This document shows, in pieces, positions 11,641-24,561 of a stretch of 24,561 nt of DNA. The notes beneath the pieces were generated by a model. That model made no database searches. It worked only from the letters and a program-made list of their open reading frames with translations, and was not told where the DNA came from. The DNA is taken from positions 1-24,561 of the forward strand of contig JBDKSP010000084.1 in NCBI GenBank assembly GCA_039680575.1. Reading direction: 5' to 3'. The position numbers and the translations under genes were made by a program. This DNA is from Armatimonadota bacterium (GTDB lineage Bacteria; Armatimonadota; UBA5829; DTLH01). Positions within the stretch are counted from its first letter, which is position 1, and each line of letters starts with the position of its first letter.

Positions 11641-11670
11641 TAAATAAACTCCCGCATAATTAGCGGTAAA

Positions 11671-14490: not shown

Positions 14491-15114
14491 TTACCGTTTT
14501 CTCCTTCTAAAGAACATCCCTGCCGGAGCAAGTATAGTACATGCTGCCAGGATCGTTCCGGGTTCCGGAACAGAGGAAACATCCATTACGCCGGTTCCAT
14601 GGGCAGTAACACTGCCTGTCCCGCTAGTTTTCGTAAGGGTTGCATCGTGGTCTAATAGGAGCCACCTTGCGCTGATAGTAGGCCCATATGATATATCTCC
14701 TGATGATTCGCCGACCCACGAACCAGAACCGGATTTATCGACATTCAGTAAAGACCCCACACACGTCCAATTAGTAACATCTTCCGCAGAGTCCACATTG
14801 TCAGCACTGTAGTAGTACTGCCAGATGAAGTTATCACCGCCTGTATCTTTCAGATTACCCTGCAGGCTCCATGACGGGTTAGTGTTATTGGTGGTAATGT
14901 CTACTTTGCCACTGTATGTCAGTTTCCATAATCCTACGAATCCTAGATCGTATGACGAACTGTCTAGGTCCAAGGGGGTAGCAGTGACCGCAGTATTATT
15001 CTTCTTCACAGTAGCAGTGAAGCCTAAGGTGGTACCATCATTATCTGCTCGGACTCCGACCGATAAACAAGACAGGACTATAGTTGCTGCGATAGCAAAT
15101 AGCAGTTTTCTCAT
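14491..15114 (-). CDS. PEP-CTERM sorting domain protein 1
   Basis: Signal peptide (VRA-D), S/T/G/D/N-rich body, C-terminal VPEPGTILAACTILAPAGMFFRRRKR; AAGGAG RBS. Confidence 0.92.
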   Translation of the reverse strand: MRKLLFAIAATIVLSCLSVGVRADNDGTTLGFTATVKKNNTAVTATPLDLDSSSYDLGFVGLWKLTYSGKVDITTNNTNPSWSLQGNLKDTGGDNFIWQYYYSADNVDSAEDVTNWTCVGSLLNVDKSGSGSWVGESSGDISYGPTISARWLLLDHDATLTKTSGTGSVTAHGTGVMDVSSVPEPGTILAACTILAPAGMFFRRRKR

Positions 15115-15238: not shown

Positions 15239-15326
15239 AATTTATCGTAAATTAGCTGATCAGTCAAGGCCATATTTCATATTTGACGAAATTTGACAGT
15301 AAAACAGGTAATATTACTGGGATACT
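15239..15326 (-). promoter_or_regulatory. Shared box plus promoter for PEP-CTERM gene 1
   Basis: Box AGTATC-CCAGTA-ATAT-TACCTG-TTTTA (15326-15300), 32 nt, then TTGACT (15267-15262)-N17-TAAATT. Confidence 0.7.
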
Positions 15327-15447
15327 CCCACTCGTAATGTGGAATGACCTGCCCCAGGGAGCCGCTGGTTTGCATTCCGGCTTGCTGCAGGAAACATACG
15401 GGATCAAATGTCTCTTTGTCTACATGTGTGTGTCACTGTACAGACAA

Positions 15448-15515
15448 AATTACCCTGTACAAATACCAGTTTTGCCACTTATCGTCTTGACACCGGAGAT
15501 ATCCCTACGTATATT
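15448..15515 (+). promoter_or_regulatory. Shared box plus promoter for the beta-propeller gene
   Basis: Box AATTAC-CCTGTA-CAAA-TACCAG-TTTTG (15448-15474), 12 nt, then TTGACA (15487-15492)-N17-TATATT. Confidence 0.7.
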
Positions 15516-15634
15516 GAGCATGTGGCAAGCTGACGGTCATAATATTGCGATCAATTTGAGTATCGCGTCAGCAGTTAACCTGAATAATCATCAGAAGATG
15601 TTCTGCCGGGTTGTTTATAAGGAGTAATGAGAAA

Positions 15635-17311
15635 ATGAGAATTATAAAATCTGTTATGGTTGTTATTGGTGTCTTGTGCGTTCTATCACTCTCCAATAGA
15701 CAGGCGGCAGCCCTTACCTGGAGCACGGATACCATTAAGGACGGGCAGCACAGCTCGGTCGTGATGGATGGAAGCGGCAGCCTGCACCTGGCATATTATG
15801 ATTTCAGGGCTGGATCGCTCAAATACGCGGTCAATAACGGCGGCACATGGTCAACACAGGTTGTGGACGGTCCCGGATTCAAAGGCCAATATCCTTCGCT
15901 CGTTCTGGATGCGTCGGGAAACCCTCATATCAGCTACTACGATTACCAGAATGGCGATCTGAAGTATGCGTCATTGGTTGGGACTGCATGGCAGATTACC
16001 ACAGTGGATAGTGCCGGTAACGTCGGCATGTTTTCATCCCTGGCATTGGACTCCAGCGGACACCCGCGCATCAGTTACTATGATTATGGAAATGGGAAGC
16101 TGAAATATGCTTCGATGGATTCAGGTACGTGGTCTGTGGAAGTCGTCGATTCGGATGGCGACGTCGGCCAGTACTCATCAATTGCATTAGACCCTTCCTG
16201 TAAACCCGTGATCAGCTACTATGACTATACCAAAAGTGATTTGAAGTGCGCGGACTGGGATGGTACGCAGTGGCACCGGGAGGTAATTGACAGCGGCAGT
16301 AATGTCGGGCAGTTTACATCGCTTGCAGTAGATGCTTCCGGAACCAGGCGGATTAGCTACTACAAAGCTGCGAATCTCTCTTACGCAGAGTATAAGAGCG
16401 GCTCGTGGACAACAGAAGTTGTCGACACCTCTGCGGGCGCCGGACAAGGGACAGCGATGTCTGTGGGAGACGGCGGCGTGGTACATATAGCCTATTATGT
16501 GTTCGGCACGCATGACCTCAAATATGCGGCCAGAGTAAACGGTCTGTGGATGACAAGCACGGTTGATTCCGCTGGAGACGTGGGGCAGAACCCTGCGATT
16601 TGCCTCGATCCTGCCGGTGCTCCTGTGATCTCCTGCTTCGATGCCACTAATCTGTGCGTTAAGGTTGCCTCGGTGCAATACAGTGATGATATCTCCGCAG
16701 CCAGGAAGTCGGACACAGACATCGTGTCTGTCGGCGGGCAGGTGGTGACCGCAGCTTACGATGGTTACTTCTATATCGAGGCTTCTGACCGCTCTGCAGG
16801 TATACGTGTCGATAGGCCGGCTCACGGCTTAAGCGCCGGTCAGATGGTGAATGTGGTCGGGAAAACTCTGACGAACGATGACAGCGAGAGATACATAGCT
16901 GCGGTAGCGGTCGGCAAAACCGGTCTAGGCTCAGTCGGACCTTTCGGTATGTCGAATAAATCGGTGGGCGGTACGGATCTTTTATCGGACGGCAATGTAG
17001 TGCAGTGCGGTGTCCTTGACGGTTTAGGTCCCAATAATATCGGGATGCTCATCAAAGTCTGGGGAACGGTCACACAGAAAGATCCTTCCGGCAGTTATGT
17101 CTATATCGACGATGGATCGGGGCTTCTTGACGGTTCGTACACGGATAGTGCTGCGAACATCGGTGTGCGTGTCGCGATGGATGGAAGCGGATACAAAGAA
17201 GGTGATTTTTTGATCATTACCGGTGTCAGCTCATGCTTTCGCAATAAAGCAACGGGTGAAGTCTGCCGCATGGTGCGTGTATTGAATGTATCCGGAACTC
17301 CATCCGAATAA
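15635..17311 (+). CDS. Secreted 7-repeat beta-propeller protein with a distinct ~200-aa C-terminal domain
   Basis: Signal peptide (AAA-L); seven ~47-aa repeats W....VDS.G.VG.YSSLALD.SG.P.ISYYD....LKYA. Start set at ATG 15635 behind AAGGAG. Confidence 0.85.
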   Translation: MRIIKSVMVVIGVLCVLSLSNRQAAALTWSTDTIKDGQHSSVVMDGSGSLHLAYYDFRAGSLKYAVNNGGTWSTQVVDGPGFKGQYPSLVLDASGNPHISYYDYQNGDLKYASLVGTAWQITTVDSAGNVGMFSSLALDSSGHPRISYYDYGNGKLKYASMDSGTWSVEVVDSDGDVGQYSSIALDPSCKPVISYYDYTKSDLKCADWDGTQWHREVIDSGSNVGQFTSLAVDASGTRRISYYKAANLSYAEYKSGSWTTEVVDTSAGAGQGTAMSVGDGGVVHIAYYVFGTHDLKYAARVNGLWMTSTVDSAGDVGQNPAICLDPAGAPVISCFDATNLCVKVASVQYSDDISAARKSDTDIVSVGGQVVTAAYDGYFYIEASDRSAGIRVDRPAHGLSAGQMVNVVGKTLTNDDSERYIAAVAVGKTGLGSVGPFGMSNKSVGGTDLLSDGNVVQCGVLDGLGPNNIGMLIKVWGTVTQKDPSGSYVYIDDGSGLLDGSYTDSAANIGVRVAMDGSGYKEGDFLIITGVSSCFRNKATGEVCRMVRVLNVSGTPSE

Positions 17312-17367
17312 ATTGCCTGATGGCCTGTATTTATATAAAGGAGCAGCTCTTCCATAGCTGGGTCTGG

Positions 17368-17455
17368 AATTACCAGGTACAATTACCAGTTTTGTTGTAA
17401 TTTTGATATTTTGGCTGCCAATGGTCTTGACTATTAAATGACTAGCTGCTATATT
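17368..17455 (+). promoter_or_regulatory. Shared box plus promoter for PEP-CTERM gene 2
   Basis: Box AATTAC-CAGGTA-CAAT-TACCAG-TTTTG (17368-17394, 24/27 identical to 15448-15474), 32 nt, then TTGACT (17427-17432)-N17-TATATT. Confidence 0.75.
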
Positions 17456-17623
17456 TCACGATAAGAGTGTGGTGTGTACCAAGTAGCCATTATATTGGCA
17501 AGTATGTTAATTGCGCCACGCTTTTTAGTTTGAACGGCTGTAATGTGGAACCATGACAAGTTCAACAAGCATATATGTCGTTCTTTGGGATGCTCATTAT
17601 TGTTGTAATAGGGGGAAACTGAT

Positions 17624-18292
17624 TTGAAAAGAGGAATTGTTCGCGTGGCCTTGTGTCTTGCCGCAGTCCTGGTCACGATGAGCCCGCAAATAGCGAGAGC
17701 TGATTCAGGAGTCCTTTTTGGTAACTTGCCATGGCCTTCCTATGGGTCTAGTTACACATCACCAACAAGTAATACCGTTTTTCTGGATATCAATCCGATG
17801 TACAATATTACAGAATCCGGTGTATTGACAAGATGGGATTGGTACGCTCAGAGTTCGCTTAGCAGTGGGACTTCCAATTCTATGTATCTGATGGTTTGGC
17901 GCCCAACTACTGATTCGAGTGTTTATACCCTCAAATATCAGCAACTGGTCGACAACAAGACCGATGGCGCTCAATGGGTTGATGCAGTAGGCAGCTTTGT
18001 TGTCAATCCGGGAGATGTGCTGGGGTTTTATCTGTCAGCGGACAGTCAACGCGGTATTGCAGAAGCCTATAATCCAGGTTCCAGTTCCAGCATATCCTGG
18101 ACTACTTCGGGGCCTTTGAGTGTTGGCACAACACATAACATTGGTGACAGTGCAATCGCAAAAAGTGACAAGACCTATGCCTTGGCCGCGGAACTGTCGC
18201 CTGTGCCTGAGCCGAGCACAGTTGTTGCGGCACTCTCGGTTCTTGCTCCGGTGGGGCTGTTCTTCAGACGCAAACGCAAGACGGTTTTATAA
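17624..18292 (+). CDS. PEP-CTERM sorting domain protein 2
   Basis: TTG start with GGGGGA RBS, signal peptide (ARA-D), S/T-rich body and C-terminal VPEPSTVVAALSVLAPVGLFFRRKRK. Confidence 0.92.
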   Translation: MKRGIVRVALCLAAVLVTMSPQIARADSGVLFGNLPWPSYGSSYTSPTSNTVFLDINPMYNITESGVLTRWDWYAQSSLSSGTSNSMYLMVWRPTTDSSVYTLKYQQLVDNKTDGAQWVDAVGSFVVNPGDVLGFYLSADSQRGIAEAYNPGSSSSISWTTSGPLSVGTTHNIGDSAIAKSDKTYALAAELSPVPEPSTVVAALSVLAPVGLFFRRKRKTVL

Positions 18293-18314
18293 AGTCAGTT
18301 GTAAGTTATCGCCA

Positions 18315-18364
18315 GGCTATTACCGAAAATCTTCCGGGAGAGCTTCAGGTATCATCTGAGACTC
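18315..18364 (-). repeat. Degenerate free copy of element B
   Basis: Reverse complement GAGTCTCAGATGATACCTGAAGCTCTCCCGGAAGATTTTCGGTAATAGCC aligns to 24454-24504. Confidence 0.8.
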
Positions 18365-18387
18365 AGTAATAGTTTCCTCCTTTGTAT

Positions 18388-18427
18388 AAAAGGGGCCGAT
18401 GGATACTCTTTCCATTGGTCCCTTTTT
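18388..18427 (+). terminator. Intrinsic (possibly bidirectional) terminator after PEP-CTERM gene 2
   Basis: AAAA-GGGGCCGATGGA-loop-TCCATTGGTCCC-TTTTT. Confidence 0.75.
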
Positions 18428-18445
18428 CCAGTTGCTGAAACAGCA

Positions 18446-18533
18446 TCAACCCCGGTATATATGCCGGTTTTAGCCGATAATCACTGTCAAAATGCCTGCC
18501 TGCCTTGACAATGCCTGCTTGGTGAGCTAAATT
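18446..18533 (+). promoter_or_regulatory. Shared box plus promoter for the wza-wzc-capD operon
   Basis: Box TCAACC-CCGGTA-TATA-TGCCGG-TTTTA (18446-18472), 32 nt, then TTGACA (18505-18510)-N17-TAAATT. Confidence 0.68.
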
Positions 18534-18876
18534 ATAATAAGATGTGCATAAGTTTTGCCAGTGTAGTTTACATCTTGGGGTTCTGCGTATTATATGCGAC
18601 TAATTTGATAGCCAAAAGAGTCCGATATATGGCATCCATTCCATGATGCATGCTGTTGTGGTGCTGGCATGAGGCTGCAGGTGTCAGACACTACACCTTA
18701 AAGACAAATCTTCTTTATATGACCAGCCTCTCGTACATACCACGAGCGCAAGCAACTCAGACAACAGTATCGCAGCATACGGTACCGAAAGCCAAGTCCA
18801 GACACTATTAAAGTTGGGTTATTTCTAAATTCTATCAGGTCGAGTTTGTCGTCTCACCCCTGGAGGATGAGTTCCT

Positions 18877-20088
18877 ATGGTCATTAACATCAGCAATACC
18901 GGCAGCTGTCTCAAATACATTTTGCGGGCGAGACTTTGTATTTCTATAATTGCTCTCTGCATGACACTTTTATTGCCCGTTTTGGGGAACGCTGCCGATT
19001 CCGATTATAAGCTCGGTCCCGAAGACGTGATTACTGTTATGGTGATGAACCATACTGAGTTTTCCGGCGATTTCTATATACCGACCGATGGAAAGATCAC
19101 GATTCCTCTTGCGGGAACCGTGGAAGTCACAGGCAAGACGCTTACCGAAGCCGCTGCGCTGATCGCTGACAACCTGAAGAGCGAACTCAAGGACCCTGAT
19201 GTCACAATCGTACTGAAGACACCCAGACCACAGCTCGTTTATGTGATGGGCGCAGTCAAGCAGCCGGGACCATACAACCTGAAGCCGGGATGGCGCATCA
19301 CGGAAGCTGTGACAGCCGCTGGAGGGATTCCTTCCGGCATAGAGGCCGCAGATTGCAAGGTCAGCATACTTCGCGGCACAAGCGGAGATAAGCAGATGGT
19401 CTCGCTGCAGGAAGCCATGAGGGGCAATGAATCAGCTAATCAGGCTGTCCGCGCCGGTGATGTAATCACTGTAGAAAATGTTGAACTCATACCTGTATAC
19501 GTGATGGGCAAAGTTGCGAGGCCTGGTGTCTATAACATCCGAAAAGACAGTGCCGGCATTCTGGAAGCCATCACGATGGCCGGCGGCACTTTGGATGATG
19601 CCGCGCTCACTAAAGTCACTGTGACTCATCTCAATGGTTCGTCAGAGACTATAAACATCGTACCGGCTACTATCGAAGGTAAGCAGGAAACACCCGTCAA
19701 GCTGCAGTCGGGCGATCTGCTCGTGGTCCCTGACTCTATTGCACGGTTTGCGGTTATGGGATGGGTAAATGCTCCCGGATTCTTCCCGCTGAAGGAGAAC
19801 CAGCAGGTAACGCTCTCCGATGCTCTGGCGCTTGCCCGTGGAGCCGACAACAAAAGGGGCGGATTGAAAAAAGTAGCGATTCTCCGTACCACCAGCGGCA
19901 AACAGGAGAGGTTGGTCGTGGATTTTCAAAAATTCGCGAAGAAGGGGGATATGTCTCAGAACCCGGTAATCCAGCCTGGAGATATTGTATGGGTGCCTGA
20001 GACAGGAAAACTGGACTGGGACAGAGTGTTTGCTAATCTGTCTACCGGTTTATCCTTCCTGTGGTCGATTGACCGGTGGAATGATTAG
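18877..20088 (+). CDS. wza: Polysaccharide export protein (Wza/OPX family: Poly_export domain plus 3 SLBB repeats)
   Basis: DYKLGPEDVITV..DGKITIPLAG.V.V.GKT; three VYVMG.V..PG..(T)..EA...AGG SLBB units; GGAGG RBS. Confidence 0.88.
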   Translation: MVINISNTGSCLKYILRARLCISIIALCMTLLLPVLGNAADSDYKLGPEDVITVMVMNHTEFSGDFYIPTDGKITIPLAGTVEVTGKTLTEAAALIADNLKSELKDPDVTIVLKTPRPQLVYVMGAVKQPGPYNLKPGWRITEAVTAAGGIPSGIEAADCKVSILRGTSGDKQMVSLQEAMRGNESANQAVRAGDVITVENVELIPVYVMGKVARPGVYNIRKDSAGILEAITMAGGTLDDAALTKVTVTHLNGSSETINIVPATIEGKQETPVKLQSGDLLVVPDSIARFAVMGWVNAPGFFPLKENQQVTLSDALALARGADNKRGGLKKVAILRTTSGKQERLVVDFQKFAKKGDMSQNPVIQPGDIVWVPETGKLDWDRVFANLSTGLSFLWSIDRWND

Positions 20089-20109: not shown

Positions 20110-22311
20110 ATGAGTTTGACTGACCGGCATATAACAACTGTGGACAACGCGCCACTTGCCCAAACGACTGAGGCTTATCAGCGCAGCGCGCCTCCCGTTG
20201 AGCAGATCGAGCTGTCCCGGATTCTTGACGTAATCAAAAGGCGCTTTTGGCTGATGCTTGCGACACTCGTCATCGTACTGGCTGCCGGAGCGGTCTACAC
20301 ACTCCATCAAAAGCCGGTGTATGAGTCCACCGCGCTCATGATCGTCGCCACAAACGGCCCGGTGACTGTCAACAGCAATGACGCGACCGTTGTAAGCGAC
20401 GTTGTAGCGCTCACAAAGTCCAGGTCCATCCAATCGCAGATCGAGCTGATCACCAGCCCTGAAGTCATCCGCGATGCCGCATTGAAGGTTGGTGAAGAAA
20501 GCTTGTCCAAAGGCTTTGGTGCAGACATAATCCCACAGTGGGCTCTCAGTGTGGATTCCAAGAAAGATTCGGATATTATCAGCATAACAGCCAAAGCTTA
20601 CAACCCGGAGGTGGCTGCAAACCTGGCCAACTCACTGGTATCGACATATATAGTACGTGATCAGCTTTCTGCCAGCCAGTCCTCGAGACAGGGCCGGGAG
20701 TATGTATCCGATGAGCTGAAGTCGGTGAGCGATCAGTTGTCAGATGCTCGTAAAAAACTCTCCGAATATAAGAAAAAGACCAAGATGCTTGCAGCGGATG
20801 ATCAGCTGAGAGCTATTGCAGGAAACCTGGTTTCCCTCCAGATGGACCAGGACAAAGCCGACATCGAGCTGGCTGCTGCTCAAAAGGAAGCCGAAACTTT
20901 CAAGAATCAGCTTGCGAAAGATGGCCATGAGATCGAGGGGAGCAGCACGATACAGCTCAGCCCTCAATATCAACAGGCTCTGACTACCCTTGCGAAGCTC
21001 TACACCGACCGCGCCAGTCTGATCCAGGAATACACTCCTGAATCAAAGCAAATAAAGAAAATCGACGGCGCTATCGCTTCGACAATGCAGGTGATGAACC
21101 AGGCTGCCCAGACAATTACGGCAACGAAGGTCAAAACAAGGAACCCAGACATCCAGAACTACACCGTAGCCCTGGTGAACCGCGCCGCCTCCAGTGCCAG
21201 GATCAAGGCGTTGAGGCGCGTTCTGGCTGCGAGAGATGCGCAGGTCCAGGCTCTGCCGGAGCAAGAGCGGGCACTTACAAAGCTGATCGAGAAGGTGACC
21301 GTGCTCGAGCGGACATACCAGATGCTCTCCGACAAGTACTACACCCTCCTGGTCAACGAGAAGTCTACGGTGCCCAGTGCAAAGTTTGCTTCGACAGCTT
21401 ACCCTGCCCCTTCACCGTCGGCGCCTAATAAAAAGAAGAATGCAGCGCTGTTCTTCCTTCTGGGGTGTATGCTGTCGGTCGGTGTCGCTACGGTTGCCGA
21501 GCGGCTGGACAAGAAGGTCCGGTATGACGACATAATCATCAAACTGACCGGAGAAGCCCCGCTTGCGGTGATCCCGAACCTGAAGGGTGCGGACAAAGCG
21601 AACCTGCAGTTGGAGTCGGTAGACCAGAGCAGCGGGTTCATAGAAGCCTTCAGGGTACTGCGCAACATAATAGACTTCGGAACAAAGGAAAATCCGGTAC
21701 AGATAGTTGCGGTGACAAGCCCCGGAAGGGCGGAAGGCAAGTCCATCACGTCTATCAATCTCGCCGTTGCCGCGGCACTCTCCGGCAAGAAGGTGCTGGT
21801 TGTAGACTGCGACCTGCGGCGTCCGTCGCTGCACAAGAAAGCTTCTATCAAACGAAATATCGGTTTTACCAACCTGGTCAGAGGGTTGATAAGTATAGAA
21901 GAGGCTGTAATGTCGACACAGATACCCAATCTTTACTGCCTCCCGGCAGGGCCGATACCGCCCAACCCCGCGGATTTCCTTAATTTGCCGGAGTGCCGTG
22001 CAACTTTCGAGAAGCTCCGGGAGAAATACGATTGGGTGATAATAGATGGGCCTCCCTGCGCTGGGCTGAGCGATATGCAGGTTGTATCGACTATTTCCGA
22101 CGGCGTAATGCTGGTCGTATCGGTGAACCAGACCGAGAAGAGCACCCTCCAGAACTCGGTGAGGATACTCTCTCTGATCGGCGCTCCTTACATAGGGTCC
22201 ATAGTCAATAAATGCAATGATAACTACGGCGGGTACGATGCTTACCGCCCGATAGCGAACATTAATGAAGCGGACATCCCCGCAATCGATGATGGAAATG
22301 ATCAGGACTAG
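20110..22311 (+). CDS. wzc: Polysaccharide co-polymerase / BY-tyrosine kinase (Wzc/GumC family)
   Basis: Two TM helices flank a coiled-coil; EAFRVLR, Walker A SPGRAEGKS, A' VVDCDLRRP, Walker B IIDGPP and a C-terminal YGGYDAY. Confidence 0.92.
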   Translation: MSLTDRHITTVDNAPLAQTTEAYQRSAPPVEQIELSRILDVIKRRFWLMLATLVIVLAAGAVYTLHQKPVYESTALMIVATNGPVTVNSNDATVVSDVVALTKSRSIQSQIELITSPEVIRDAALKVGEESLSKGFGADIIPQWALSVDSKKDSDIISITAKAYNPEVAANLANSLVSTYIVRDQLSASQSSRQGREYVSDELKSVSDQLSDARKKLSEYKKKTKMLAADDQLRAIAGNLVSLQMDQDKADIELAAAQKEAETFKNQLAKDGHEIEGSSTIQLSPQYQQALTTLAKLYTDRASLIQEYTPESKQIKKIDGAIASTMQVMNQAAQTITATKVKTRNPDIQNYTVALVNRAASSARIKALRRVLAARDAQVQALPEQERALTKLIEKVTVLERTYQMLSDKYYTLLVNEKSTVPSAKFASTAYPAPSPSAPNKKKNAALFFLLGCMLSVGVATVAERLDKKVRYDDIIIKLTGEAPLAVIPNLKGADKANLQLESVDQSSGFIEAFRVLRNIIDFGTKENPVQIVAVTSPGRAEGKSITSINLAVAAALSGKKVLVVDCDLRRPSLHKKASIKRNIGFTNLVRGLISIEEAVMSTQIPNLYCLPAGPIPPNPADFLNLPECRATFEKLREKYDWVIIDGPPCAGLSDMQVVSTISDGVMLVVSVNQTEKSTLQNSVRILSLIGAPYIGSIVNKCNDNYGGYDAYRPIANINEADIPAIDDGNDQD

Positions 22312-22314
22312 CAA

Positions 22315-24240
22315 ATGATACGCAGAAGCCTGAGTAGAGCGGAGTCTGTGGGCTGGCGCGTTGCGCTCGCCTTCACGGATGAGCTTATAGTATTCGCTTC
22401 GTTTCTCGTCGCTTTATGGATGAGATTCGATGATAAGCCGCTGCTTCAGACCTGGGATCATTACATTGGCCCCAGGTTCCCGGGCATTCTGCTGTCTGTC
22501 GCGTTCTACTTCCTGGTGCTTGCGGCATCGAAGATGTATCTGCATGCGTGGCGTTTTGCGGGATTCGAGGCTATATTGTCCCTTACGCGGGCAAGCATCA
22601 TAGCCGTAGCGGGAATGGTGCTCATCCAATACTGCCTCTATGCCGATATGATGCCGCGGAGCGTGGTGTTTCTTTACTGGCTTTTGAGCCTGCTAGGCAT
22701 CGGCACACTCCGGTTGGGGATCAGAATGCTCGGCCGCCGCTTTCTGTCTTCTGTCTGCGATGAAAAAAAAGATGGTGAGACGGTCACAGTCCGCACTATC
22801 ATAGTCGGACCTGCCGAACAGGCGCTTGCCATAGTCAAAGCCATCGCGCACACAAGCAGTATGCGCTACTATTCGATTATCGGGTTCCTTGACGACAGTG
22901 ATGAAAAGCAGGGATTGTTCTTCGGCGGAGTCAAGGTCCTCGGGACTACTGATCTCTTGGCCAAATATCTCGAAAACCGTGAAGTAGACGAAGTGATATT
23001 CGCCCAGACCGATGATTCGGACCCCGAAGACATACGCGACCTGGTTCTCGAGTGCAGAAAGAAAAAAGTCCTGGCAAAAGTGATTCCGAACCTTGAAGAT
23101 CAGCTGCTCCGGCCAAGATACCTGCGGATCGAAGAGATCCAGATGGAAGATTTGCTCAGGCGTCCGATGAGATCGGTCGATGTGAAGTCCTATGCAGGGT
23201 ATCTGACAGGCAAGAGGGTCCTTATCACAGGAGCCGGAGGGTCCATAGGCTCTGAGATCTGCCGCCAGGTAATGAGGCTGAACCCAGCAGAGGTTATCCT
23301 TCTTGGACACGGCGAAAACTCGATATTCAGAATCGCTCAGGAGCTCAGGCGCGATTATCCCGAGATGTCCAGCAACATCTTTACGATCATCTCATCGATA
23401 ACCAATCAGAAGAGGATCAGCAGGGTATTCAAGCGGTTCCGTCCGCAGGTGGTGTTTCATGCTGCCGCGCATAAGCATCTGCCGCTTATGGAAGAGAACA
23501 TCTGCGAGGCGGTGCATAACAATGTCATCGGCACGCATAATGTAGTCGATGCCTGTGTGGAATACGGCGTCGAAAAGATGGTCCAGATATCGACGGATAA
23601 GGCCGCGGAGCCTTCCAGTATAATGGGCGCAACCAAGTGGATCTGTGAGATGGTAGCAAGGACCGCCGCTAAGCAGTATCCTGATACAACATTCGTATGC
23701 GTCAGGTTCGGAAACGTTCTGGGCAGCAGAGGCAGTGTTATTCCGGTCTTTCAGGAGCAGATAAGGACCGGCGGCCCGGTAACAGTGACCCATCCGGAGA
23801 TGACCAGGTTCTTCATGGCGATACCTGAAGCCGTGCGCCTGGTAATCCAGGCTGGTGACGTAGGAAAAAGCGGCGCGATATATGTGCTGGACATGGGCAA
23901 GCCTGTCCGTATACTGGACCTTGCCGAAGATATGATCCGGTTGAACGGCTACGAGCCCGGAACGGATATTCAGATAGCATTCACGGGAATCAGACCCGGC
24001 GAGAAGATGCATGAGACCCTCGCCTCGAACCAGGAACAGCTGGAACGCACGCAGTATGACGGTTTGAACAAGGTCCAGGGAGAAGTGGGCTTAACATACG
24101 CCGAAGCAGAGGATATCGTGGAGAAGTTCCAGCATCTTGCACTGTCTCTCGACGGCGAAGGGGTCCTCGAAATGCTGCAGGAAGTTGTGCCCGGGTATGC
24201 AAAGTCAGCCAGGGCGATGTACTCAAGGCAGGTATCGTAA
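22315..24240 (+). CDS. capD: Membrane-bound nucleoside-diphosphate-sugar 4,6-dehydratase (CapD/WbpM/PglF family)
   Basis: Four N-terminal TM segments, CoA-binding-like linker, EDLLRR, TGAGGSIGSE, HAAAHKH, STDKA, MGATK, RFGNVLGSRGSV and RPGEK. Confidence 0.92.
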   Translation: MIRRSLSRAESVGWRVALAFTDELIVFASFLVALWMRFDDKPLLQTWDHYIGPRFPGILLSVAFYFLVLAASKMYLHAWRFAGFEAILSLTRASIIAVAGMVLIQYCLYADMMPRSVVFLYWLLSLLGIGTLRLGIRMLGRRFLSSVCDEKKDGETVTVRTIIVGPAEQALAIVKAIAHTSSMRYYSIIGFLDDSDEKQGLFFGGVKVLGTTDLLAKYLENREVDEVIFAQTDDSDPEDIRDLVLECRKKKVLAKVIPNLEDQLLRPRYLRIEEIQMEDLLRRPMRSVDVKSYAGYLTGKRVLITGAGGSIGSEICRQVMRLNPAEVILLGHGENSIFRIAQELRRDYPEMSSNIFTIISSITNQKRISRVFKRFRPQVVFHAAAHKHLPLMEENICEAVHNNVIGTHNVVDACVEYGVEKMVQISTDKAAEPSSIMGATKWICEMVARTAAKQYPDTTFVCVRFGNVLGSRGSVIPVFQEQIRTGGPVTVTHPEMTRFFMAIPEAVRLVIQAGDVGKSGAIYVLDMGKPVRILDLAEDMIRLNGYEPGTDIQIAFTGIRPGEKMHETLASNQEQLERTQYDGLNKVQGEVGLTYAEAEDIVEKFQHLALSLDGEGVLEMLQEVVPGYAKSARAMYSRQVS

Positions 24241-24373: not shown

Positions 24374-24435
24374 ATATCACCCTGAACAACCAGCCCATCA
24401 TCATGGATGGAAGCACGTCACCCTGAATAACCAAC
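24374..24435 (+). repeat. ~21-bp-period tandem copies of the REP left arm
   Basis: ATATCACCCTGAACAACCAGC, a degenerate 20-mer and ACGTCACCCTGAATAACCAAC, in phase with ACGTCACCCTGAACT at 24436. Confidence 0.75.
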
Positions 24436-24436
24436 A

Positions 24437-24561
24437 CGTCACCCTGAACTAAGGAGTTTCAGGTATTACCTGAAACTCTCCCCGGAAGATTTTCGGCTAT
24501 AGCCGAAAATCCATAGATTCAGGGTCCATTTTTTTCCTGGATGCTGAGTCAAGCTCAGCAT
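24437..24561 (+). repeat. CGTC-tagged REP doublet copy 3 with a 65-bp element-B insert (24451-24515); runs off the window edge
   Basis: CGTCACCCTGAACT[AAGGAGTTTCAGGTATTACCTGAAACTCTCCCCGGAAGATTTTCGGCTATAGCCGAAAATCCATA]GATTCAGGGTCC..GGATGCTGAGTCAAGCTCAGCAT. Confidence 0.88.

Follow-up and report, generated by a model that had tools for sequence, protein, structure and literature searches.

A 16-bp palindromic box precedes surface-protein genes across a class of Armatimonadota and is a predicted target of stand-alone LuxR-type helix-turn-helix proteins

The regulation of genes for PEP-CTERM proteins and exosortases has been described as a proteobacterial circuit of PrsK/PrsR and σ54, with further motifs and regulators outside the proteobacteria still to be found (PMC1569441). 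The activator CRP works best from sites centred at -61.5, -71.5 and -82.5, aided by an UP-like tract directly downstream of its site (PMC4132738), and lux boxes sit beside the -35 element (PMC1766932). Here we describe a locus on a stretch of 24,561 nt from an Armatimonadota bacterium (the window, which is contig C84 of a 2.97-Mb, 97% complete genome, G000) in which a 16-bp dyad followed by a T-tract, which we call the box, precedes the promoters of two PEP-CTERM genes, a gene for a propeller-like secreted protein and the polysaccharide export gene wza. We report the motif, its enrichment and conservation, its phasing relative to promoters, the classes of gene that it precedes, and a candidate family of DNA-binding proteins together with the distribution of that family. 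The boxes belong to a class-wide motif before surface genes, and from sequence comparison we consider it rather probable that they are bound by a dimer of a small stand-alone LuxR-type helix-turn-helix (HTH) protein, which is predicted to recruit σ70 RNA polymerase.

The elements of the window are listed below (coordinates, strand, description).

14491..15114, minus strand: open reading frame for PEP-CTERM protein gene 1, 207 amino acids; TIGR02595 at 20.0 bits, cut-off 16
15239..15267, minus strand: predicted σ70-type promoter-like site of gene 1, TTGACT (15267-15262), 17 nt, TAAATT (15244-15239)
15300..15320, minus strand: box 1, dyad 15320-15305 plus T-tract, 37 nt above the -35; 15 of 16 positions kept in the congener G001
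15454..15474, plus strand: box 2, a dyad at 15454-15469 followed by the T-tract, 17 nt upstream of the -35; unchanged in G001 at 15 of 16 positions
15487..15515, plus strand: σ70-type promoter-like site TTGACA-17-TATATT of the propeller gene; top match of an independent promoter scan, 11 of 12 bases
15635..17311, plus strand: gene for the secreted repeat (propeller-like) protein, 558 amino acids; weak BNR_4 match, signal peptide by eye
17374..17394, plus strand: box 3, a dyad at 17374-17389 followed by the T-tract, 37 nt upstream of the -35; G001 copy 14 of 16, gap 38
17427..17455, plus strand: σ70-type promoter-like site TTGACT-17-TATATT of PEP-CTERM gene 2; 10 of 12 in the promoter scan, TG extension
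17624..18292, plus strand: PEP-CTERM protein gene 2, 222 amino acids; TIGR02595 at 20.8 bits, cut-off 16
18452..18472, plus strand: box 4, a dyad at 18452-18467 followed by the T-tract, 37 nt upstream of the -35; unchanged in G001 at 15 of 16 positions
18505..18533, plus strand: σ70-type promoter-like site TTGACA-17-TAAATT of wza; 10 of 12 in the promoter scan
18436..18790, plus strand: promoter and leader block, with a near-identical duplicate (by alignment) before an exosortase-EpsI fusion gene on contig C94; no Rfam match
18877..20088, plus strand: wza-like polysaccharide export gene (Poly_export, SLBB), whose start may be 18982
20110-22311, plus strand: wzc-like tyrosine autokinase gene, by profile matches
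22315-24240, plus strand: sugar-nucleotide dehydratase gene, by profile matches

The four boxes had been proposed in a sequence-only reading of the window, and they lie as 21-mers exactly where it placed them, at 15320-15300 (minus strand), 15454-15474, 17374-17394 and 18452-18472. Each is followed by TTGAC(A/T)-N17-TA(A/T)ATT at the proposed gaps of 32, 12, 32 and 32 nt from the 21-mer, which become 37, 17, 37 and 37 nt when counted from the end of the 16-bp dyad. The dyad centres, proposed to be near -81 and -61, compute to -80.5, -60.5, -80.5 and -80.5 if transcription is assumed to start 7 nt after the -10, and the gene labels also stand, both PEP-CTERM genes passing TIGR02595 and wza carrying Poly_export and SLBB. 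The independent promoter scan includes all four window promoters among its 25 sites, three of them in the top four. With a matrix that included the four window sites, 5000 shuffles of the three intergenic stretches gave at most one site above 14 bits (mean 0.01, against four observed), and with a matrix derived from 33 sites that lie outside the window, three of the boxes come first to third, and the propeller box fifth, among all window positions. The congener G001 keeps all four boxes, with gaps of 37, 17, 38 and 37 nt and changes mostly toward the consensus; its copy of box 3, read by eye where the aligner is off by one base, is nearer to the consensus than the window's own.

Genome-wide, the core consensus is the 16-bp dyad CYGGTA-W4-TACCRG with a one-sided, promoter-side T-tract. 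A scan of the genome with a matrix from the four boxes alone is topped by intergenic sites before other PEP-CTERM genes and an exosortase gene, with TTGAC at the predicted 22 and 32 nt. Together with the survey of promoter geometry below, this check, suggested by the sequence-only reading, recovered the predicted gaps of 12, 22 and 32 nt beside other PEP-CTERM genes and an exosortase gene. Of 1532 upstream regions, 45 exceed the shuffled threshold in an iterated matrix run, and the genome holds 14 occurrences of the exact pattern CHRGTANWWNTACYDG, 13 of them between genes, against none in the shuffle. Among held-out PEP-CTERM genes (those of the window excluded) 4 of the 16 that could be scored have a site above 12 bits, compared with 51 of 1220 other regions (p=0.004). 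The box covers ~9 of the 26 PEP-CTERM matches of the genome, or about a third, a count to which the two genes of the window contribute together with a weaker site on C111, a site on C89 that lies 670 nt upstream, and an operon on C58.

Profile scans of the genes downstream of the other sites (55 and 41 proteins) place the box before an exosortase-EpsI fusion gene with a UDP-sugar dehydrogenase gene; before a second wza-wzc-exosortase operon, divergent from an HD-domain gene; before motAB, pilMNO, cheY-cheX-cheA, prepilin-type genes, a sortase gene and a TolC-HlyD-ABC exporter; and before genes for nucleotidyl-transferases, TPR glycosyltransferases, lptF/G-like and LysM-NlpC proteins. Weaker sites are found at flagellin, fliW-csrA and FliA-type σ factor genes. 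The proposal of a regulon for PEP-CTERM proteins and extracellular polysaccharide (EPS) is thus borne out in that the box precedes PEP-CTERM, exosortase and EPS genes, but the box is not confined to these; since secreted enzymes, pili, motility and chemotaxis genes are included, the regulon is broader.

For promoter geometry we took 102 sites from three genomes and sought σ70-like promoters within 70 nt. There are 57 σ70-like matches beside these sites, 22 at a gap of 15-17 nt, 7 at 26-28, 6 at 37-38 and 4 at 0 nt, where the background expectation is ~0.3 per position. The gaps are phased at 10.5 bp (Rayleigh test, p=8e-10, 42 matches between 8 and 45 nt), and the T-tract lies on the promoter side in 38 of the 57 promoter-linked matches. 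The predicted centres fall at about -59 to -61, -70 and -81, so that gaps of 15-17, 26-28 and 37-38 nt correspond to the class I spacings of -61.5, -71.5 and -82.5, and at a gap of 0 the centre falls at about -43.5, next to the -35 as in lux boxes. The position near -81 is present at the window locus as first read, but it is mostly a feature of that locus: four of the six cases at 37-38 nt are the window's three and their duplicate, and about -60, which dominates in the relatives, is therefore the usual position. Under stricter limits 43 of the 102 sites have a σ70-like site, 14 have a σ54-like site (5.9 in shuffles) and 49 have neither.

The motif is not peculiar to one genome. We compared 41 genomes of the class, this one included, and 151 of the phylum, which are related and hence not independent samples. 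The exact pattern occurs 2-49 times per genome (median 11) in 36 of the 41 class genomes and 1, 0, 0, 2 and 0 times in the five that are motif-poor, and a control palindrome with C and G swapped occurs 0-3 times in every one of the 41. A box precedes pilM in all six genomes of this family, and a score of at least 11 bits is reached at 8 of 24 other pilM loci, where the next element is GCCGATAA/GACGATAA, which we take to be a σ28 -10. The link to wza proposed from the window holds there but extends to only 3 of 22 wza loci, all in this family. For two genomes of another order the analysis covered 36 of the 37 exact sites of G037 and 22 of the 36 of G039; there 17 of the 46 genes on the T-tract side are PEP-CTERM genes and the remainder are mostly genes for signal-peptide proteins, among them GHL10 hydrolases, amidases and phosphodiester glycosidases. 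The class-wide core targets are therefore surface and secreted proteins, and the EPS link is limited to this family.

Three proteins of the genome, encoded outside the window at C58:6798-7016, C117:6780-7037 and C82:13817, consist of a LuxR HTH (PF00196) alone (72, 85 and 83-86 amino acids), and all three carry the helix SKRTVDFHLA. The SKRTVDFH segment shares TVxFH with a RhlR variant (SESTVNFH) and QscR (DQRTVKFH) and differs from GerE (SEKTVRNH) and the VraR/LiaR type (TLKTVKTH), and the KRTVDFHLA positions are invariant in 45 aligned members of the family. The main paralogue has a best match of 62-99% identity in 36 of 40 relatives, less G027, whose match is 44%; the family is missing from G011, G014, G024, G029 and G027, and these are the five motif-poor genomes. 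G024 keeps 13 PEP-CTERM genes with neither box nor factor, and G037 has two boxes in the space between a divergent pair of paralogues, the first 15 nt above a TTGACA and the second over a -10. Across the phylum, the 64 genomes with the family hold 383 exact sites against 42 for a spacer-5 control, and the 87 without it hold 91 against 46; outside the class the corresponding figures are 200 against 33 and 87 against 43. At least five exact sites occur in 24 of the 64 genomes with the family and in 2 of the 87 without it (G057 and G121). In G057 we note that CCGGTATAAATACCGG recurs between genes with similar flanks (loci L248-L262), and these copies look like part of a dispersed repeat.

Judged by sequence, this LuxR-HTH family probably binds the box, and very probably the box is a functional, mostly activating site. 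We envisage that a LuxR-HTH dimer would bind the 16-bp dyad and recruit σ70 RNA polymerase, turning the surface genes on together. From about -60, -71 or -81 it would act in class I fashion through the α C-terminal domain placed on the promoter-side T-tract, and from about -43.5, the lux-box position, it would act in class II fashion by a contact next to the -35. These LuxR-HTH proteins carry no sensor domain, so activity is likely set by the level of the protein or by partner proteins; the main paralogue has no conserved cysteine, and PedR-like redox control is therefore not indicated.

Several observations weigh against this reading. By strict patterns the 49 sites noted above lack any σ70-like or σ54-like promoter, and in three of the four window promoters 10-11 of the 12 bases agree with the consensus, which makes an activator less necessary. 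Housekeeping genes are found among the matches (greA, yebC, nuoH/recA and endonuclease V), so that part of the target list is noise or divergent neighbours; probably these matches are noise or lie on the wrong side of a divergent pair. The cep consensus, to which the box is compared below, scores only 6.6 bits on the box matrix. The five genomes without the LuxR-HTH family come from three genera of a single taxonomic family and are missing pilM and strong enhancer-binding proteins as well, and because they are related and have these further losses, co-loss cannot single out the factor. Correspondence within the phylum is likewise imperfect: G121 has 6 sites without the family, G020 has the family yet 2 sites, and family-bearing genomes outside the class often have 0-3 exact sites (median 2; none in 6 of 51). 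Finally, a box above 13 bits lies within 310 nt upstream in only 9 of 80 loci of the family in the phylum, a patchiness on which we rejected general autoregulation of the main paralogue, and the second paralogue has a box above 10.9 bits in 6 of 19 loci, three of them from one genus.

It is possible, if unlikely, that the box is a real σ70 activator site whose binder is some other transcription factor, lost together with pili, σ54 activators and the LuxR-HTH family. The absence pattern of the five motif-less relatives is common to several gene families, the families we examined were the LuxR-type, CRP-type, LexA and enhancer-binding ones only, and the patchy boxes before the LuxR-HTH genes would also fit. 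Against this, the motif has the form of a lux/cep box and the LuxR-HTH helix is of the quorum-sensing type, and the excess of the motif tracks the LuxR-HTH family across the phylum. For the NarL-type response regulators of this genome, the matches in the five genomes that we checked reach only 24-37%, and G027, which lacks the motif, has such a regulator. LexA has a separate set of CGAAC-N4-GTTCG sites (10 sites of the GAAC-N4-GTTC type, one before a uvrA-like gene), with only a weak box near recA. An acyl-homoserine lactone (AHL)-binding LuxR protein was set aside since the best match in the genome to the autoinducer-binding domain PF03472 reaches 14.2 bits, below the cut-off of 23. CRP recognizes the consensus TGTGA-N6-TCACA; the sequence-only reading likened the positions of the dyads to those of CRP, but the box itself resembles lux/cep boxes and not CRP sites. 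CRP/FNR was rejected as the factor, the two partial matches over the cut-off in the HTH_Crp_2 search being, as we read their translations, a DtxR-like protein and a 99-residue HTH protein.

A mainly repressive or architectural role, in which the box would serve to bend or block near-consensus promoters, we regard as improbable. The closeness of three window promoters to consensus would suit it, as would the boxes that overlap a -10 or sit just downstream of σ54-type sites. Repressors, however, usually overlap the core promoter, and most promoter-linked boxes lie wholly upstream of the -35, sharply phased and with a one-sided T-tract, which is the class I pattern.

The place of σ54 requires separate comment. 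The sequence-only reading had σ70 in its stead, and the σ70-type promoters at the boxes and the lack of a PrsR equivalog among the three proteins tested agree with this, but σ54 has not been replaced. Two rpoN genes are present, along with four enhancer-binding-like genes; three of the encoded proteins score 264, 428 and 406 bits against the PrsR equivalog TIGR02915 (cut-off 502.6), the fourth (C11, V4R-like by eye) having been outside that scan, and PrsK (TIGR02916) is not among the matches at E<=1e-30 of the two kinases beside those proteins, the only kinases scanned. Strict σ54 sites number 15 over all upstream regions, many before secreted proteins, and -24/-12 sites of the form TGGCA-N-TGC precede six PEP-CTERM genes (C33, C40, C58, C89, C90 and C106), with none before either PEP-CTERM gene of the window. 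At the C106 gene a box lies 21 nt above the σ54 site, at the C89 gene a box with a σ70-like site lies upstream of the σ54 site, and in relatives some boxes are found 65-66 nt above, or directly behind, σ54 sites. With six σ54-type PEP-CTERM promoters, two of them alongside a box, the PEP-CTERM genes here therefore seem to be split between two promoter classes with some overlap.

These findings bear on whether the box is instead an enhancer for a σ54 enhancer-binding protein, analogous to the PrsR site, with the σ70 hexamers secondary, which we find less probable again than repression. The 14 of 102 sites with a σ54-like site within 130 nt exceed the 5.9 of shuffles; four of them are at 65-66 nt, near the spacer of 63 nt in the proteobacterial element (PMC1569441); a joint box-σ54 pattern has 12 matches in 10 of 53 class genomes and none in a control; and the five genomes that lack the LuxR-HTH family have no enhancer-binding proteins either. 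Of the four cases at 65-66 nt, however, three are paralogous promoters of one genome, no tested protein reaches the PrsR cut-off, and the window's two PEP-CTERM genes have no σ54 site. The idea is weakened further by the class-wide enhancer-binding protein itself, which is 64-78% identical across the class and ends ~42 residues after WPGN in all seven relatives read, leaving no room for a DNA-binding domain, and which is the only strong one found in G037, a genome with 37 sites. Lacking such a tail, it was rejected as the direct binder. In this genome it is a receiver-AAA+ protein without a C-terminal DNA-binding domain (C55:10757-11962, L305; orthologues L307-L311, L313 and L314).

That the boxes are chance palindromes or remnants of dispersed repeats is scarcely credible. 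A multi-copy repeat does exist in the genome, a single duplication gave rise to the wza and exosortase boxes, and an identical-looking 16-mer of G057 seems part of a repeat; but the flanks of other boxes are unrelated, shuffles, the C/G-swapped palindrome (0-3 per genome) and the spacer-5 control are all low, and the fixed spacing to the -35 recurs in two other genomes.

A wider version of the LuxR-HTH reading, which we put forward as doubtful, makes the sensor-less trio, with its one shared helix of the quorum-sensing type, a master regulator of the surface in much of the phylum that, through a single lux-box-like site, activates σ70 (class I and II) and σ28-type pilus promoters, gates the σ54 promoters of a second set of PEP-CTERM genes and possibly gives a DNA address to the co-inherited, HTH-less enhancer-binding protein.

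We note further features of the LuxR-HTH genes and of the locus. A conserved element about 45 nt before the main LuxR-HTH gene, consisting of GGAA, ~10 nt and then GAGCGGCGAGCAGGGAAAGGAG, is found in 30 of 30 aligned class loci (L084-L113); it is probably the promoter and leader of that gene, possibly for an alternative σ factor. The third paralogue stands directly behind a gene for a σ70-family σ factor in 17 loci (C82:12895-14080, L078; L381-L397), which suggests a conserved pair of σ factor and HTH protein. Two LexA-like genes are present (C117:5506-6195 and C106:17596-18213), one of which stands two genes ahead of the main LuxR-HTH gene, as is also the case in several relatives. The propeller protein's C-terminal domain (~200 amino acids, window 16685-17311) is common to 26 proteins of the genome by local profile search, has no Pfam match and stands mostly at the C-terminus of large signal-peptide proteins; it is a candidate for a lineage-specific surface-anchoring or sorting domain, and an enrichment of the box before the genes that share it was rejected as weak (3 of 22, against 66 of 1240). 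Leaders resembling cyclic di-GMP (c-di-GMP) riboswitches carry a box above 12 bits in two of seven pattern matches; those on C31 and C51 have a 13.9-bit box 56 nt upstream. On C89 two tandem c-di-GMP-I riboswitches identified with Rfam (L017:9004-9252, minus strand) precede a secreted-protein gene, ~150 nt downstream of a weak box.

In the window, the wza, wzc-like and dehydratase genes are likely co-transcribed, as the gaps between them, 21 and 3 nt, suggest. In front of wza and of the exosortase gene stands a single ~350-nt promoter block in duplicate, which is also present in G001 (the C94 copy is at L004:9530-10150), and its leader is possibly a leader RNA or an antitermination element; a search of the long leaders for structured RNA gave no Rfam match, either in the window or in the leader of the duplicate. 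A motif-like palindrome of 12.6 bits (window 11651-11666), between a radical SAM gene and an RNase E/G gene, is flanked on both sides by TAAACT and may be a terminator hairpin. A dispersed repeat that recurs between genes and at many contig ends, both here and in G001, has copies at window positions ~18315-18365 and ~24400-24561. Contig C94 (wzm/wzt-exosortase) might carry on the EPS cluster of the window, but a multi-copy repeat makes up the overlap.

Armatimonadota are common in digesters, soils and hot springs. We found no described regulon for the phylum in the literature searched, nor a description of the motif or the factor family, though subscription papers and supplements, which lay outside the search, could hold one. 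For Armatimonadota the work provides a motif with its promoter geometry and a list of targets, and it names a candidate factor of 85 residues; as the factor is small and the sites explicit, tests of binding and activation, in vitro or in E. coli, do not require the organism in culture. If correct, the reading would extend recognition of the lux-box type to a protein without an autoinducer domain, far from the proteobacteria.

Lastly, we compare the box with the systems closest to it. The Burkholderia cep box (CTGTAAAAGTTACCAGTT; PMC1766932, Table 2) equals our consensus plus T flank at 15 of 18 positions, and at 9 of 10 in the right half. The lux/cep boxes share with ours a 16-bp dyad of the CT-N12-AG type, and the candidate binder has the TVxFH helix of RhlR and QscR. 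Our box differs from the cep box in its left half, CYGGTA, which makes a cleaner palindrome, and in that most sites lie one to three turns further upstream; lux boxes abut the -35, whereas only 4 of the 57 promoter-linked matches, and none of the four window boxes, are at gap 0. LuxR proteins of the AHL type have an autoinducer-binding domain, whereas the candidate here is an HTH alone. In this it is like GerE of Bacillus and PedR of Synechocystis (PMC5923263), likewise proteins of 70-90 residues with PF00196 alone; unlike GerE, it has a different recognition helix, and it comprises three paralogues with one shared helix and surface-gene targets. With CRP of class I and II (PMC4132738) the box shares centres near -61, -71, -81 and about -43 and an A/T tract directly downstream, but the site is not a CRP site and the genome has no convincing CRP/FNR protein. 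The box of the PrsK/PrsR/PrsT-σ54 system (PMC1569441) is also one motif before scattered single PEP-CTERM genes, linked to exosortase/EPS loci, and was found, like ours, by motif-to-factor profiling; ours differs in having no TTTACA end, σ70-type promoters at activator distances and a wider target set, and none of the three tested proteins is a PrsR equivalog. The predicted circuit would work like CRP or lux-box activation and play the part that PrsR-σ54 has in proteobacteria, and a tested feature sets it outside each of these systems.

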